Assembly: GCA_023267595.1 (NCBI GenBank) | Contig: JAHFNB010000003.1 | Coordinates: 2,165-66,164 of the forward strand | Source: a bacterium | Lineage (GTDB): Bacteria; Patescibacteriota; Minisyncoccia; Phycocordibacterales; UBA5272 | DNA: 64,000 nucleotides | Direction: 5' to 3' | In this document: positions 4,825 through 45,386 of the stretch, piece by piece | How the letters are laid out: the number at the start of each line of letters is the position of its first letter | Numbering within the stretch: the first letter of the stretch is position 1 | The notes under the pieces: model-generated | Database searches by the model: none | What the model saw: the letters and a program-made list of their open reading frames with translations, nothing else | Told to the model about the DNA's origin: nothing | Translations under genes and position numbers: made by a program

Positions 4825-6168
4825 ATGAAATCTCGTTTAGGAATTATCTTATGTGGTATTGGTATTTCCTTCTGTATCCCAGCCATTTCCCTTGCACAAG
4901 AGTCTACATCAACATCATTTAAAATGTTTGACCCTGTGATTGCACCGGGTGGATTTGCTACATCTACAAGTTTTCAATTATGGAGCACACTTACGGAAAT
5001 TGCTACAGGATTTAGTTCATCAACACTTTTTCAACTCGGCGCAGGGTTTTTGCGATATCCACTTGTTTCTACACCTATTGTTTCTGCTACTGCAGGAGAT
5101 GCACAAGTATTTTTGTCATGGACTGCTTCTCAAGGGTTTTGGCATATCATGCCTTCTACGTATATGCTCGGACGATCTACTATTTCAGGTGGTCCATACA
5201 CATTTAGTTCAGTTGGTTTTGGTTCTACCGTTACCGGTCTTACAAATGGAACCACCTATTATTTCGTCGTGCGTGTTCATGATGTAGATGGAAATGTATT
5301 GGCAACGTCGACTCAAGTCTCTGCTACACCACAAGCAGCAAGTAGTGGCGGTGGAGGCGGTGGAGGCGGTGGAGGCGGTGGAGGCGGTGGAGGCGGTGGA
5401 GGCGGTGGAGGCGGAGGCGCTAGTACACCAACGGCAACTGCAGTTGTATTTTATGGAAGAGCCTATCCAAAAAGTATTGTAACGTTACTTAAAGACGCAC
5501 AAATTGCAGCAACTACAATTGCAGGAGCAGACGCAAATTTCCAGATAAGTTTGTCAGGTATTTCTTCAGGGAATTATATTTTTTCATTATATGGTGAAGA
5601 TAATAAAGGTTTGCGATCATCACTTCTTTCTTTTCCGGTAAGTGTGACGCAAGGTGCTACAACCCAAGTCACTGGTATTTTTATTACACCAACTATTGAT
5701 GTAGATAAAAGTGAAGTACGACAAGGAGATAACATTGCAATTTTTGGACAAAGTACACCTCGTTCAGAAATTATTATAAGTGTGCATTCTGATGAAGAAT
5801 ATTTCCAAAAAAAGACATCAGATAATAATGGTGCATATCTTTTTAATTTTGATACATCAGTTCTTGAAATGGGACAACATCAAACAAAATCGAAGACATC
5901 ACTTGATGGAGAAATTAGTGCTTTTAGCCAAGTGATTGGATTTTTAGTTGGTACGAAAAATGTAGCAGCACTTACAAAAAAGAAAATTTTAAAAGGAGAT
6001 CTTAATAAAGATGGAAAAGTAAACTTAATAGATTTTTCTATTGCTTCGTTTTGGTATAGACGTCCACTTTCAGAATCATTTAAAGCAATTGAAATAGAAC
6101 GTTTAAATGCAGATGGAAAAGTTGATTTAAAAGATTTCAGTATTATGGCATTTTATTGGACCGGGTAA
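4825..6168 (+). CDS. Secreted protein with signal peptide, 24-residue poly-Gly linker and C-terminal type-I dockerin-like duplicated Ca-binding repeats
   Basis: N-terminal signal peptide (GIGISFCIPAISLAQE). C-terminus has two dockerin repeat segments, DLNKDGKVNLIDFS and LNADGKVDLKDFS. Gly24 run encoded by a 9-bp tandem repeat. Confidence 0.7.
   Translation: MKSRLGIILCGIGISFCIPAISLAQESTSTSFKMFDPVIAPGGFATSTSFQLWSTLTEIATGFSSSTLFQLGAGFLRYPLVSTPIVSATAGDAQVFLSWTASQGFWHIMPSTYMLGRSTISGGPYTFSSVGFGSTVTGLTNGTTYYFVVRVHDVDGNVLATSTQVSATPQAASSGGGGGGGGGGGGGGGGGGGGGGGGASTPTATAVVFYGRAYPKSIVTLLKDAQIAATTIAGADANFQISLSGISSGNYIFSLYGEDNKGLRSSLLSFPVSVTQGATTQVTGIFITPTIDVDKSEVRQGDNIAIFGQSTPRSEIIISVHSDEEYFQKKTSDNNGAYLFNFDTSVLEMGQHQTKSKTSLDGEISAFSQVIGFLVGTKNVAALTKKKILKGDLNKDGKVNLIDFSIASFWYRRPLSESFKAIEIERLNADGKVDLKDFSIMAFYWTG
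5347..5418. repeat. Tandem 9-bp microsatellite (GGCGGTGGA) x7 perfect plus one imperfect copy, encoding poly-Gly
   Basis: ggcggtgga repeated head-to-tail from 5347 to 5409, then ggcggaggc. The alternative frames give the VEAVEA and GGGG artefact ORFs at 4940 and 5288. Confidence 0.95.
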
Positions 6169-12523: not shown

Positions 12524-12655
12524 ATAAGATCAGTATAGCATTTCTATGTGGGTGTATTTTTGTAAGAAAACTCTGATATTTTCGTCATTATATATACATC
12601 CCTACACGATATGGGAATTACTTATTAAAGTGGCACACATAATTAAAAAATATAT

Positions 12656-13171: not shown

Positions 13172-13319
13172 TGAGGAAATTATTGTGACTACAAGTTTTC
13201 TTTCGTCGTCACTCAAGAAACTCGCAGCCCACCCCTCGTGGTTTTGTCTGCTGACAAAACATCACTGCGGCCCTCCACAAAGCACAAAACCTGCAGCAGT
13301 GCAGGTTTTTGTGTTTTTG

Positions 13320-13392
13320 TGGACCCTAGCGGAATCGAACCGCTCACCTCCGGAGTGCAAAACCGGCGCTCTACCATATGAGCTAAGGGCCC
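13320..13392 (-). tRNA. tRNA-Ala (anticodon UGC)
   Basis: Reverse complement GGGCCCTTAGCTCATATGGTAGAGCGCCGGTTTTGCACTCCGGAGGTGAGCGGTTCGATTCCGCTAGGGTCCA folds as a cloverleaf. G3:U70 Ala identity pair. Anticodon loop TTTGCAC with U33 and A37. T-loop GGTTCGATTCC. CCA not encoded. Confidence 0.85.
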
Positions 13393-21711: not shown

Positions 21712-21770
21712 ACTGCTCATGAGTGAAATCTGGAGCAGTTTTTTATTATAAAAATGATATAATTATCCTC

Positions 21771-22784
21771 ATGAAATCCCATCTCGCTCTCTATCGTAAA
21801 TATCGTCCAGAAACTTTTTCAGATGTTGTTGGTCAAGAGCACATAGTCACATTACTCACAACTTCTATTAAACAAAAGAAAATATCTCACGCGTATTTAT
21901 TTTGTGGGGGTCGTGGTACAGGAAAGACAACGGTAGCAAGAATCGTAGCAAAAGACATTGGATGTAATCCTGAAGATATTATTGAAATAGATGCAGCCTC
22001 TAATCGCGGAATAGATGAAATACGAGCATTACGAGATGCTGTGCGTACTTCACCTTTTTCATCACCGTATAAGGTTTATATTATTGATGAAGCACACATG
22101 CTCACTAAGGAAGCAGCAAATGCACTACTTAAAACATTAGAGGAACCACCATCACACGTTATCTTTATTCTTGCAACAACAGATCCTGAAAAATTACCAC
22201 AAACAATAGTTTCTCGATGTCAAAAAATTGTCTTTCAAAATCCAAGTAGAGAAACATTAGCCCTCCATTTAATGAACATCGCCTTAGAAGAAGGTTTTAA
22301 ACTAGATAATAAAACTGCTCTTACTATTGCATCACATGGTAAAGGATCATTTCGTGATTCTCTTGGAATATTAGAACAGGTTATATCTACAAGTGGAAAG
22401 ACAATCGTTTATGAAGATGTGACACATTTGTTAGGTACTCCAGAAAAAGAAGCACTTATCATATTACTGGGTGCAGTATGTACTAAAAATCAAAAGACTG
22501 TTGTGGAGACAATACATGTATTGTCATCCAAAACAGATAGTCTGCGTGCTTATGATGAGTTTATTGAACTTGTTCAACAAGCACTCTATATACGAATAGG
22601 TGAAGGTAAAAAGGGTGATAGTAAGGAGGATACAGAATTAATACGTCTAGCAAGTGAATACCCACGTGTCATTGCCTCAAAATTAGTCCTAGAACTACTC
22701 AGTAAACGTCATCTACTTGAAGTATCAACTAGCCATGCATCGCTTGCTTTTACAGCAATTTTACTATCACTTATAGAAGACTAG
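21771..22784 (+). CDS. dnaX: DNA polymerase III subunit gamma/tau (short form). ORF is open from a GTG at 21723.
   Basis: LYRKYRPETFSDVVGQEHI, Walker A GGRGTGKTT, DEAH-like IIDEAHML, sensor motifs LLKTLEEPP and SRCQ. Confidence 0.8.
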   Translation: MKSHLALYRKYRPETFSDVVGQEHIVTLLTTSIKQKKISHAYLFCGGRGTGKTTVARIVAKDIGCNPEDIIEIDAASNRGIDEIRALRDAVRTSPFSSPYKVYIIDEAHMLTKEAANALLKTLEEPPSHVIFILATTDPEKLPQTIVSRCQKIVFQNPSRETLALHLMNIALEEGFKLDNKTALTIASHGKGSFRDSLGILEQVISTSGKTIVYEDVTHLLGTPEKEALIILLGAVCTKNQKTVVETIHVLSSKTDSLRAYDEFIELVQQALYIRIGEGKKGDSKEDTELIRLASEYPRVIASKLVLELLSKRHLLEVSTSHASLAFTAILLSLIED

Positions 22785-22795
22785 TTGAGGGGTAC

Positions 22796-22824
22796 TTGAC
22801 AAAAATAGTATAGGGTGCTATACT
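22796..22824 (+). promoter_or_regulatory. Near-consensus sigma70-type promoter: TTGACA, 17-bp spacer, TGcTATACT (extended -10)
   Basis: ttgaca at 22796-22801, 17-nt spacer, tatact at 22819-22824 with TG at -15/-14. Predicted TSS near 22831. Confidence 0.6.
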
Positions 22825-22830
22825 GTATCT

Positions 22831-22980
22831 ATTCTGATCTTTCGAGGGAGGCAAAGCATGGGTAAGACCTTGCAAGTCTCGTTGTACAGCCCATAAGACC
22901 GTAAGGTCCTAAATTGGGTAGAGGGCAGGGCAGAGGACCAAACAGCCCCGGCGTGCCAATTCGCCGGGGCTGCTTTTTTT
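22831..22980 (+). ncRNA. Candidate ~150-nt structured small RNA of unknown class, bounded by a consensus promoter and an 11-bp-stem intrinsic terminator
   Basis: No plus-strand ORF with an RBS. Several internal hairpins (ATGGG...CCCAT; AGACC-TTGCA-AGTCT; GGTCCT...AGGACC). Ends with cagccccggcg-tgccaatt-cgccggggctg followed by TTTTTTT. Confidence 0.45.
22943..22980. terminator. Intrinsic terminator (strong on + strand; also abuts the stop of the minus-strand gene 22979..23407)
   Basis: 11-bp GC-rich stem, 8-nt loop, 7 T residues. Confidence 0.8.
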
Positions 22981-23407
22981 ACTCTGGAATAAGAAAGAAT
23001 GCTGCAACGATTGCTCCAATCCATGAAATAGTAGATATGGCACCACTTATAAGAAGGGGTGCTTTTTCTCGTGTAGAAAGTGAGATAAATGTTTTTTCTG
23101 TTGCAATGTGTGATATTTTCCCAATCACAAGCCCATTAATAATAAGTGTAAAAACAAATCCCATTTTAATATAAAATTGTGGACGAGTTAAAAGAAATTC
23201 TCTCATTGGATAAAATAAGACACTACCCGTTATAATCATAAGTCCTAACCCAATCCATGTACCATGATGATATGTGCTGATATCTTTCTTTGACAATAGT
23301 TGTTCTTTTCCTGTCATCCATAAGAATCCAGCATGATCTGCACGAATAACATTCCATGCAACATAGAGTAGTGATAGTAAATGAAGAGGTAAAAATAGTT
23401 GACTCAT
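22979..23407 (-). CDS. Hypothetical polytopic membrane protein
   Basis: 142 aa with 4 predicted TM helices. 6 nt downstream of the cytochrome b5-domain gene on the same strand. Confidence 0.5.
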   Translation of the reverse strand: MSQLFLPLHLLSLLYVAWNVIRADHAGFLWMTGKEQLLSKKDISTYHHGTWIGLGLMIITGSVLFYPMREFLLTRPQFYIKMGFVFTLIINGLVIGKISHIATEKTFISLSTREKAPLLISGAISTISWIGAIVAAFFLIPE

Positions 23408-29528: not shown

Positions 29529-29651
29529 ATTTAAAATAATTTATTTGGTATAGAGACAGTATAGCGCCCTAAGGGGAAATAGGGAAGGATGCTAAGAATA
29601 GGTGGGGATAGAACGAAATCCCCATGACTAGTGGGGATTTAACAAAAGGGT

Positions 29652-32894: not shown

Positions 32895-32921
32895 CTTTGC
32901 TGGGGTACAAGGACTCGAACC
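32895..32921. repeat. Direct repeat R3 = 3' end of the intact tRNA-Gln plus flanking caaag
   Basis: ctttgctggggtacaaggactcgaacc. The first 12 nt are identical to R1. Confidence 0.6.
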
Positions 32922-32970
32922 TCGATACTCAGGACCAAAACCTGATGTCCTACCATTAGACGATACCCCA
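32900..32970 (-). tRNA. tRNA-Gln (anticodon UUG)
   Basis: Reverse complement TGGGGTATCGTCTAATGGTAGGACATCAGGTTTTGGTCCTGAGTATCGAGGTTCGAGTCCTTGTACCCCAG folds as a cloverleaf. U1:A72 (Gln identity). Anticodon loop TTTTGGT. T-loop TTCGAGT. Confidence 0.8.
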
Positions 32971-33007
32971 ATATTATCAAACTATTTTACACTACTCATT
33001 ATTTATT

Positions 33008-33086
33008 GTCCTGAGTGTCAGGACCACTGTATTTTACCGCTTCGTAAACTCCGCTTGCTGATGTCCTACCATTAGACGATACCCCA
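33008..33086 (-). pseudogene. Fragmented tRNA-Gln copy: exact duplicate of tRNA positions 1-29, then a 31-nt insertion at the anticodon loop, then GGTCCTGA; the 3' half is missing
   Basis: 33058-33086 is identical to 32942-32970. The reverse complement reads TGGGGTATCGTCTAATGGTAGGACATCAG-[CAAGCGGAGTTTACGAAGCGGTAAAATACAG]-TGGTCCTGA then diverges. Confidence 0.5.
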
Positions 33087-33258
33087 AATAAACAGACGTT
33101 AGATTTTAGACAATAGACTATAGATTTTCCTCTAATGTCTAGTGCTTAATGTCTAATAACTGTGCAAAATATTCTACCATGAAAAGATTGCTTGCGCGAG
33201 AGTAATGTATATGAGTATACTCATCTCATTACCTATTTAATTTCTCAAAAATTATTTT

Positions 33259-33498
33259 ATGAAAGGCTTTACACCAGAACATACTTCTACAGAAAATCTT
33301 TCAAAACCTCCTACTACAGAACTTTCTAGTGATTTAACAGGGAAATTACACTTTGCAGAAGAACGTTACAAAACGATGGAACCAGTAAGTGGAAAATTGG
33401 CCTCAATACTTGCTCATGCTGCAATAGTTGCTGCTAATGATGAGCATTTTGAAAGAAAGGAAAATACAAATAGTGATACATACCAGATGATTGGATAA
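33259..33498 (+). CDS. Hypothetical small protein
   Basis: 79 aa, hydrophilic. Confidence 0.3.
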   Translation: MKGFTPEHTSTENLSKPPTTELSSDLTGKLHFAEERYKTMEPVSGKLASILAHAAIVAANDEHFERKENTNSDTYQMIG

Positions 33499-33571
33499 AT
33501 ATTGACAAAATCATTTCTTTATGAGAGAGTAAGGACACGATTACCCTTTATTTAAAAGGGAAAACGCATCT

Positions 33572-33862
33572 ATGGCTATCATTTTAAATCTTAAAAAAAT
33601 ACTCGAACAATCTGAACTTTCTGCAGAAGAAGTTCGGGCATTTGAAATAGGTCTTGCATACCTTACAAAAGATCAACAAGAAACATTTGTGACTTTACTT
33701 GCCAATGATCCAGAACTCATCTACCCACTATATATAAACTTTAAGGCAAAACTTCGCGCCGCACGTGGAACAAAACAAGAGTGGGAAGAAGCAGTAGAAA
33801 CTGAAATTGTTCAACTCGAAGACTACCTTGCAAAGAAACGAGTAGGGGATGAGATAAAGTAA
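33572..33862 (+). CDS. Hypothetical small helical protein
   Basis: 96 aa. Followed by a strong terminator. Confidence 0.4.
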   Translation: MAIILNLKKILEQSELSAEEVRAFEIGLAYLTKDQQETFVTLLANDPELIYPLYINFKAKLRAARGTKQEWEEAVETEIVQLEDYLAKKRVGDEIK

Positions 33863-33893
33863 TAAGTTAGAAGTTAAATGCTAGATACTTAAA

Positions 33894-33928
33894 GAAATCT
33901 GATGCCTACGGCATCAGATTTCTTTTTA
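33894..33928 (+). terminator. Intrinsic terminator
   Basis: aaatctgatgcc-tac-ggcatcagattt (12-bp stem), then CTTTTTAT. Confidence 0.8.
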
Positions 33929-33991
33929 TATTTTTCTAGCATTAAGCATCGAGCCTCTAACTCTAGGTTCTCTCTGATATACTTATCTCTA

Positions 33992-34531
33992 ATGAAACAT
34001 CTAGTGTCTAGTCTGCAACTTATTTTTATACGCAAAGATAGTCGTTTTGTTATTATCACCACCACAGTTCTTTTTTTGTTGTTGCTTTTACTTGTACAAA
34101 ATGGAAGTGCGGCTCAGAATATCTTAGGGTTTGAAGTTCTGCCACCATTTAAACGGTTCACTCTTGCACTTGCAACATTCTTTGATATACAAAACACATT
34201 CACCATATCCTCTCTTATTCTTGCAACATTAGGATCATTACTTGGTGGTATTAATATTTCACTTGCCTATACCTATATACGTATGCGTGGTGAAATTGTT
34301 GTAAAAAGTGGACTCTATAGTGGTGTAGGGTTATTTTTTGCATTCTTAGGTATTGGATGTGCAGCATGTGGAACGGCATTACTCAGTGTTGTATTAAGTT
34401 TTTTTGGCTTTTCCACTATGCTTTCCTTACTACCATATCAAGGAGAAGAAATAGGATATATCGGTCTTATATTTTTATGTATAGCAACGTATACACTTGC
34501 ACAAAAAGTTGCATTACCAAACGTGTGTTAA
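33992..34531 (+). CDS. Hypothetical polytopic membrane protein. The track ORF from 33902 begins inside the terminator.
   Basis: 4-5 TM helices. Lies 7 nt upstream of the thermonuclease gene. Confidence 0.45.
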   Translation: MKHLVSSLQLIFIRKDSRFVIITTTVLFLLLLLLVQNGSAAQNILGFEVLPPFKRFTLALATFFDIQNTFTISSLILATLGSLLGGINISLAYTYIRMRGEIVVKSGLYSGVGLFFAFLGIGCAACGTALLSVVLSFFGFSTMLSLLPYQGEEIGYIGLIFLCIATYTLAQKVALPNVC

Positions 34532-36682: not shown

Positions 36683-36722
36683 AAAAGTATAGCATATTTG
36701 AAAATGTTATACTGGACAGGAT

Positions 36723-39097: not shown

Positions 39098-39198
39098 ATG
39101 ATACTACGTAGTATATCAATAAGAAGAAATATTGACATCGTAATAATTTTGATATAGAAATATGAATAGGTAGTACGGAAAATAAACATGGAGGATAT

Positions 39199-44876: not shown

Positions 44877-45060
44877 AGTTTATACTAAATAATGAATGTT
44901 ATGGGACACAGTATACAAGAAATCTTAAAAAAGATCAATAGTGGACTTACCTATCGTGATTGTCTTAGTATAGGTATTACTGTACTTTTTCTTCTTATAT
45001 TTTTCTGGTATATACAAGGGGAAATTAGTGAAAACAGGTTCCCTGTGACCTATACAGAAA

Positions 45061-45180
45061 AATAAAAAAATGGCGAGACTGAAGAGTTACAGTCTCGCCG
45101 AAACATACACTCGCCCAGGGAGAAGAGGCGAGCCACATGGAGAGCCTCGCAACTCCCATATGTATCTCACACAGTAAACC
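45061..45180 (-). promoter_or_regulatory. GC-rich structured element with a minus-strand intrinsic terminator and alternative pairings; candidate attenuator/leader or sRNA upstream of rpmA
   Basis: Perfect 10-bp hairpin ggcgagactg/cagtctcgcc at 45072-45099, followed on the minus strand by UUUUUUUAUU. GGCGAG and CTCGCC each recur three times, allowing mutually exclusive helices. Confidence 0.35.
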
Positions 45181-45386
45181 AAAAATATTATTTTGTCAAG
45201 TGTTTTTATCCACTGTTTTTCTCTAGTCTTGTATAGACTTTAAAGATTTTTAACTCTACACTTAAAATATATGGCAAAAGAAACAAAAACATATAGAAAA
45301 GAAAAGAAGAAACCAAAAAAGGTTCGATAGTTACATTACAAAAAAACTGACTAAGTGATGGTCAGTTTTTTGTTATACTATAAGTT

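Follow-up and report, generated by a model that had tools for sequence, protein, structure and literature searches.

Within the 64,000-nt stretch of DNA analyzed here (the window), a gene for a short clamp-loader ATPase of the dnaX/holB type (positions 21723 to 22784, stop codon at 22782 to 22784) is followed by a convergent gene for a 142-amino-acid membrane protein, and between the two lies a compact set of transcription signals (22796 to 22980, plus strand) enclosing a GC-enriched body. The surrounding gene order (Dus, dnaX, the convergent 142-aa gene, cytochrome b5, DUF2914, M10 peptidase) is shared with relatives. The nearest relatives of dnaX and its neighboring genes are all from metagenome-assembled Patescibacteria (CPR), labeled Saccharibacteria, Paceibacteria, and Gracilibacteria, and the host itself is an uncultivated member of this group; long unbroken open reading frames under table 11 argue that it uses the standard genetic code.

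Promoter, terminator, and base composition

A promoter scan places a perfect −35 box, TTGACA, at 22796 to 22801 and an extended −10 box, TGcTATACT, at 22816 to 22824, both on the plus strand; the spacer from TTGACA to TATACT (22819 to 22824) is 17 nt long and ends in TGC, with the TG at 22816 to 22817. Scored against TTGACA, TG, and TATACT, the site at 22796 to 22824 reaches 13 of 13, and the next best sites on both strands of the whole window reach 11, which bears out the description in the initial annotation of TTGACA-17-TGcTATACT as the best promoter of the window. A consensus scan lists the same site at 11 of 12, with the TG dinucleotide. The pattern TTGACA-N13-15-TGNTATAMT occurs once in the window, against 0.04 occurrences expected from dinucleotide-preserving shuffles. 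A sigma-70-type promoter of this form would start transcription near 22831; the distance, 7 nt past the −10 box, suggests A22831 as the first nucleotide.

On the same strand, 119 nt from the promoter, is an intrinsic terminator (22943 to 22980) composed of an 11-bp stem with 10 GC pairs and an 8-nt loop (22943 to 22972), followed by C and seven T's (22974 to 22980). The GC stem and T7 tract reported earlier are present, and at −26.2 kcal/mol this is the most stable hairpin before a T-run in the window. Its T-run overlaps the stop codon (22979 to 22981) of the convergent 142-aa gene. The terminator stem has a pairing probability of about 1 in the partition function, with no competing antiterminator; because the stem is always formed in the ensemble, the unit does not look like a switch. 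Transcription would end at about 22978, giving an RNA of roughly 145 to 150 nt.

The interval is also GC-richer than its surroundings, as had been noted: positions 22854 to 22973 are 57.5% GC compared to 35.1% for the window, ranking second among 120-nt windows and above the tRNA at 13264 to 13383, and the unit as a whole (50 to 57% GC) is comparable to tRNAs. The top GC spot of the window (69%) lies elsewhere, at 5350 to 5412, where the open reading frame at 4825 to 6168 (weak dockerin match) contains GGTGGAGGC seven times in tandem, which codes for a poly-glycine linker.

Promoter usage and leaderless genes in the host

The genome has a promoter form of its own, TGNTATACT, found in 12 copies where 3.7 are expected and mostly directly 5′ of start codons; examples of TGnTATACT at 12532 to 12540, 36686 to 36713, 39110 to 39118, and 45371 to 45379 end 6 to 12 nt before start codons. 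A further box, GGGYGCTATACTGT, at 29556 to 29569, is nearly identical to the −10 element of the unit and likewise stands 5′ of another gene. Because the genome itself uses TGnTATACT, the promoter of the unit is native in kind. It is unlike the other native promoters in having a perfect −35 box and in having no start codon at the predicted transcript start, where ATG, GTG, and TTG are all absent.

Across the window, a −10-like hexamer occurs within 20 nt upstream of the start codon in 22 of 55 open reading frames (40%), compared to 6.4% of random positions, and Shine-Dalgarno-like tetramers precede only 4 of the 55, equal to the background rate of 7.6%. From these frequencies, host mRNAs appear to be mostly leaderless, and translation seems to do without Shine-Dalgarno sites. 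A literature search on small RNAs (sRNAs) and leaderless translation in CPR bacteria found nothing pertinent in the collection searched.

Predicted transcript and its coding potential

The predicted transcript core (22831 to 22941, plus strand) comprises 111 nt at 50% GC. Folding of the full transcript gives −59 kcal/mol (z = −3.1), a signal that comes from the terminator; without it, the core folds at −30.5 kcal/mol, within the spread of its shuffled versions (−28.9 ± 3.8; z = −0.42). The earlier characterization of the interval as hairpin-rich consequently applies to the terminator and not to the core. The minimum-energy fold of the core, which lacks shuffle and covariation support, is a three-way arrangement of a closing helix, P2 (22845 to 22883), and P3 (22889 to 22919). 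The closing helix pairs the pyrimidine-rich 5′ end with a G-rich 3′ tract, and the loop of P3 is GUAA (22901 to 22904) within the hairpin GACC-GUAA-GGUC (22897 to 22908), the one GNRA hairpin of the unit. The G-rich tract itself, GGGUAGAGGGCAGGGCAGAGGA (22916 to 22937, plus strand), is a candidate interaction region.

The initial annotation held that the interval has no open reading frame preceded by a ribosome-binding site, which is literally wrong. A mini-open reading frame on the plus strand (22846 to 22896) has the Shine-Dalgarno-like motif GGGAGG at 22846 to 22851, then 6 nt, an ATG at 22858, 12 codons encoding MGKTLQVSLYSP, and TAA at 22894 to 22896. The unit might then be a short leadered mRNA for this 12-residue peptide, or a leader-peptide attenuator. 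The ATG is the sole one in the transcript, and we estimate the a priori chance of its 6-nt spacing from GGGAGG at about 1 to 2%. Even so, a Shine-Dalgarno motif would be out of place in a genome that shows no enrichment of such sites, and both GGGAGG and the ATG would be buried in helix P2. An attenuator would need a gene to control, and none follows on the same strand; its terminator would also need a competing structure, which is lacking. Finally, a Pfam search returned nothing for either the peptide or its read-through frame. Since the genome does not use Shine-Dalgarno sites, GGGAGG lies inside P2, no same-strand gene is downstream, and there is no Pfam match, the 12-codon reading frame is probably fortuitous and not meaningful, and we consider it quite improbable that the unit serves to make or use this peptide. 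The notion that the mini-open reading frame, taken with its read-through frame, represents a gene for ribosomal protein L34 that has since decayed was rejected, with no Pfam match at an E value of ≤10. A riboswitch or leader-peptide attenuator was likewise rejected as a class, given a terminator pairing probability of about 1, a convergent next gene, and no riboswitch model match.

An occupied junction in one lineage

We located contigs of relatives through homologs of the 142-aa protein, and the identities given here are those of that neighboring protein. Relatives with the same gene order include L083 and L084 (75%), L086 and L087 (77%), L088 to L090 (67%), and L097 (81%). In five same-order relatives (67 to 81%), the ends of dnaX and the 142-aa gene share 4 nt or leave a gap of 2 to 8 nt, with no hairpin; aligned with them, the window is longer by about 190 nt, the excess lying exactly between the two stop codons. 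This segment (22785 to 22978, between the dnaX stop and the stop of the 142-aa gene) is absent from L083, L084, L086, L087, L088, and L097. Because same-order relatives have the empty site, we regard the unit of about 190 nt as a lineage-specific insertion, one that appears to be recent and confined to one species. At greater distance, L091 (64%) has a DUF454 protein gene in place of the unit, and more distant Patescibacteria have a tRNA, a protein gene, or unrelated genes after dnaX. A scan of GTDB genomes based on dnaX returned 80 loci; in the nearest of these (60% identity), dnaX is followed by protein genes or a tRNA and never by the RNA of the unit.

Independent assemblies (L081 from Logan, L082 from ENA, and a 141-kb ENA contig) carry the roughly 190 nt of the unit without a single difference, and the unit is therefore not an assembly artifact. 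L082 (ENA ERZ27279937 k141_4388443) is a 978-nt contig carrying the 142-aa gene and the whole RNA unit; it ends at window position 22790, 6 nt past the dnaX stop and at the left edge of the insertion, an end point that may reflect strain polymorphism in that sample, with and without the insertion.

One could suppose that the terminator is the selected part of the insertion, insulating the convergent dnaX and 142-aa/cytochrome b5 units from each other, with the short RNA a by-product. The near-abutting or overlapping genes of the relatives, which lack a hairpin, would fit such a role, as would the fact that the strongest hairpin of the window stands right where the two genes meet, flanked on its two sides by an A-run and a T-run. 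Insulation alone leaves unexplained why a perfect promoter lies 119 nt upstream and why a GC-rich body of 111 nt intervenes, and in the minus direction just three U's follow the stem, which is not called as a terminator on that strand. We regard this explanation as improbable.

Searches for homologs

Searches by blastn, nhmmer, and a single-sequence covariance model over about 690 kb of related DNA, which took in a further 10 kb of the host contig and about 60 kb of relatives around another locus, recovered only the unit itself. Among viral contigs, six exact patterns gave one 21-nt match, inside a phage tail-protein coding sequence and best attributed to chance; the viral chance matches amount to two phage contigs, both with a gene of a single tail-protein family. 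In JGI metagenomes, one two-anchor pattern matched inside an FHA-domain protein gene of a GC-rich contig, also by chance, and blastn against phage and plasmid records found no homolog of the unit. An antisense open reading frame of 68 amino acids, used as a protein probe for loci miscalled as genes, gave no word hits, and three phmmer matches to it were rejected as unrelated tandem-repeat proteins. The related, viral, metagenome, phage, and plasmid sets thus yielded no homolog from which conservation or covariation could be drawn.

These results bear on a rival account of the insertion, in which foreign or rearranged DNA carrying a promoter and a terminator by chance is transcribed without function and awaits removal by selection. 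Occurrence in one species only, with the same junction empty in five relatives at 67 to 81% protein identity, is consistent with this account, and so are a core that folds no better than shuffles and the failure of every collection searched to yield a homolog; a foreign origin would also account for a GC content so much higher than that of the genome as a whole, and L082 may stop only 6 nt from the left edge because the population is polymorphic. The account has more difficulty with the signals themselves. The promoter is of the idiosyncratic TGnTATACT type of the host and is the best in the window, a pairing of best promoter and best terminator at sRNA-typical spacing is unlikely in random foreign DNA, and the segment sits exactly between two stop codons with neither gene damaged. 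On balance we think a functionless insertion unlikely.

Comparison with known RNA families

The Rfam search proposed in the initial annotation assigned the unit to no known family. At gathering thresholds, cmscan with all 4,227 Rfam 15 families found only two tRNAs in the window and nothing at the unit, and ARAGORN found no tRNA or tmRNA there. With the cutoff relaxed to an E value of ≤10 on positions 22700 to 23080 (381 nt), there was no SRP, 6S, or riboswitch match; the weak matches obtained (MicC, NsiR1, SurA, Spot 42) are terminator driven and far below threshold. The isolated core (22826 to 22945, 120 nt) had zero Rfam matches at an E value of ≤10.

The suggestion of a divergent 4.5S or 6S RNA accordingly finds no counterpart in any Rfam model, SRP and 6S included, on the region or the core at an E value of ≤10. 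SRP RNA (4.5S, ffs) resembles the unit in size range, GC enrichment, a GNRA-capped hairpin, and proximity to dnaX as in some Bacillota. The unit differs in having no covariance-model match (RF00169 or RF01854) and no symmetric or asymmetric helix 8 motifs, its GUAA hairpin being flanked by AUAA and CUAAAU instead of the symmetric (AGCA/GGA-type) and asymmetric helix 8 loops to which Ffh binds, and in that no conservation in relatives was seen: the syntenic site is empty in five of them, and about 150 kb of their DNA yielded no copy. 6S RNA (ssrS; RF00013 and related models) is similarly a small RNA with a strong promoter that looks abundant, but the unit has no model match, is shorter than typical 6S RNA, and ends in a terminator, and its minimum-energy and suboptimal folds are branched, with a three-way arrangement in place of a rod with a central bubble. 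Within the reach of sequence and structure models, both classes are rejected.

Linkage of ffs and dnaX is known in Bacillota. The initial annotation had drawn on this synteny, and because the unit is a lineage-specific insertion the argument does not apply: the five same-order relatives have no intergenic space at this point, and distant ones have a tRNA or protein gene. One might still propose a highly divergent housekeeping RNA (SRP/4.5S or 6S) that has moved beside dnaX, citing that linkage, the constitutive-looking promoter, and the GUAA hairpin at 22897 to 22908. The model searches, the isolated core included, the nonconserved GUAA flanks, and the absence of a rod with a central bubble all speak against it, and one would expect close relatives to keep an essential RNA at this locus, or at least to reveal it by sequence. 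We consider this explanation very improbable.

What does hold from the initial annotation is a discrete transcription unit of about 150 nt and unknown class, as judged from its predicted boundaries. Generic trans-acting sRNA genes have their own sigma-70 promoter, a body of about 50 to 300 nt, and a Rho-independent terminator, and the unit has the corresponding parts, with its own promoter and an intrinsic terminator around a short body. It resembles them further in its length of about 150 nt, its strong terminator, its place between convergent genes, its lack of convincing coding capacity, and its narrow phylogenetic range. It is unlike them in that no family, homolog, seed, target, or chaperone evidence was found, and the usual blocking of ribosome-binding sites by sRNAs is not obviously applicable in a leaderless host without Shine-Dalgarno sites.

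A second sRNA-like unit and other features of the window

A second orphan sRNA-like unit is predicted at 45063 to 45199 on the minus strand, with TTGACA at 45199 to 45194, a 15-nt spacer, and TGgTTTACT (−10 at 45178 to 45173). Its RNA would be about 104 nt long, have CCUCUUCUCCCUG as a hairpin loop, and end in a strong terminator (stem 45099 to 45072 plus T7), and its fold scores z = −5.5. Among Rfam models it resembles anti-hemB (38.9 bits, E = 8.6e−8, below the gathering threshold of 49.5) and, also below threshold, CcsR1. RNAs of the anti-hemB/CcsR1 type have a CU-rich loop, and the second unit is like them in its loop CCUCUUCUCCCUG and its terminator; the first unit (22796 to 22980) is unlike them, being G-rich and not CU-rich. 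The second unit was not detected by nhmmer in the syntenic loci of relatives (L098 to L101). Given this second example, small RNA genes of this build appear to be a feature of the genome. Pairing between the G-rich RNA and the CU-rich loop of the second unit was considered and rejected, since dinucleotide shuffles pair about as well (P = 0.18 and P = 0.54), and its apparent rank among genome windows is a composition effect.

Convergent with the second unit is an uncalled open reading frame of 54 codons (44903 to 45067, plus strand), MGHSIQEILKKINSGLTYRDCLSIGITVLFLLIFFWYIQGEISENRFPVTYTEK, which has a hydrophobic stretch and a box TTTATACT upstream and shares a hairpin with that unit. Elsewhere in the window, a tRNA-Gln(TTG) gene lies at 32899 to 32970 on the minus strand, and a 30-nt exact direct repeat of its 5′ half occurs at 32942 to 32971 and 33058 to 33087, 116 nt apart, which resembles what an integration or excision beside the tRNA leaves behind. 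Just past the small open reading frames of the 32970 to 33900 intergenic stretch, a 16-bp hairpin of −22.7 kcal/mol followed by a T-run (33886 to 33935, plus strand) overlaps the annotated start of the open reading frame at 33902 to 34531, a start that is probably miscalled.

Interpretation and implications

Our best reading is that the unit is a stand-alone noncoding sRNA gene, young, orphan, strongly expressed, and trans-acting, a reading to which we give about even confidence. The argument for it is that the best promoter and the best terminator of the window enclose a GC-enriched body without a 5′ start codon, and the second unit of the same build at 45063 to 45199 on the minus strand counts in its favor. 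Counting against it are the lack of a homolog, the z value of −0.42 for the core, and absence from relatives as close as 81% identity.

If this stand-alone gene exists, it would have arisen or arrived recently as the insertion between convergent stop codons, and its RNA would most likely act in trans by base-pairing or protein binding, with single-stranded and G-rich segments as the contact surface; the G-rich tract would be the most distinctive candidate for such a surface. No target for the RNA was identified within the window. Because host genes lack Shine-Dalgarno sites and are mostly leaderless, occlusion of a ribosome-binding site is unlikely, and an mRNA 5′ end, a coding region, or a protein would be a more probable target. 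A more specific and tentative proposal, which we hold to be possible but doubtful, is that the unit encodes a regulatory RNA that was born or acquired only recently and has not yet spread beyond a single species, and that its G-rich body acts elsewhere than on ribosome-binding sites, for example by sequestering a protein or a CU-rich RNA.

To our knowledge, almost nothing is known about the regulatory RNAs of Patescibacteria, and for now the unit is one candidate among many. Together with the second unit 22 kb away, it suggests rapid gain and loss of small RNA genes at gene junctions in reduced genomes, and the insertion and the empty site form a natural comparison for the birth of an RNA gene. 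An RNA of this kind, acting where there is no Shine-Dalgarno signal and mRNAs are mostly leaderless, must differ in mode from the textbook enterobacterial model. If this more tentative proposal of a newly born or acquired regulator is correct, the unit would be the founder of a new sRNA family and would show how reduced symbiont genomes gain regulators.
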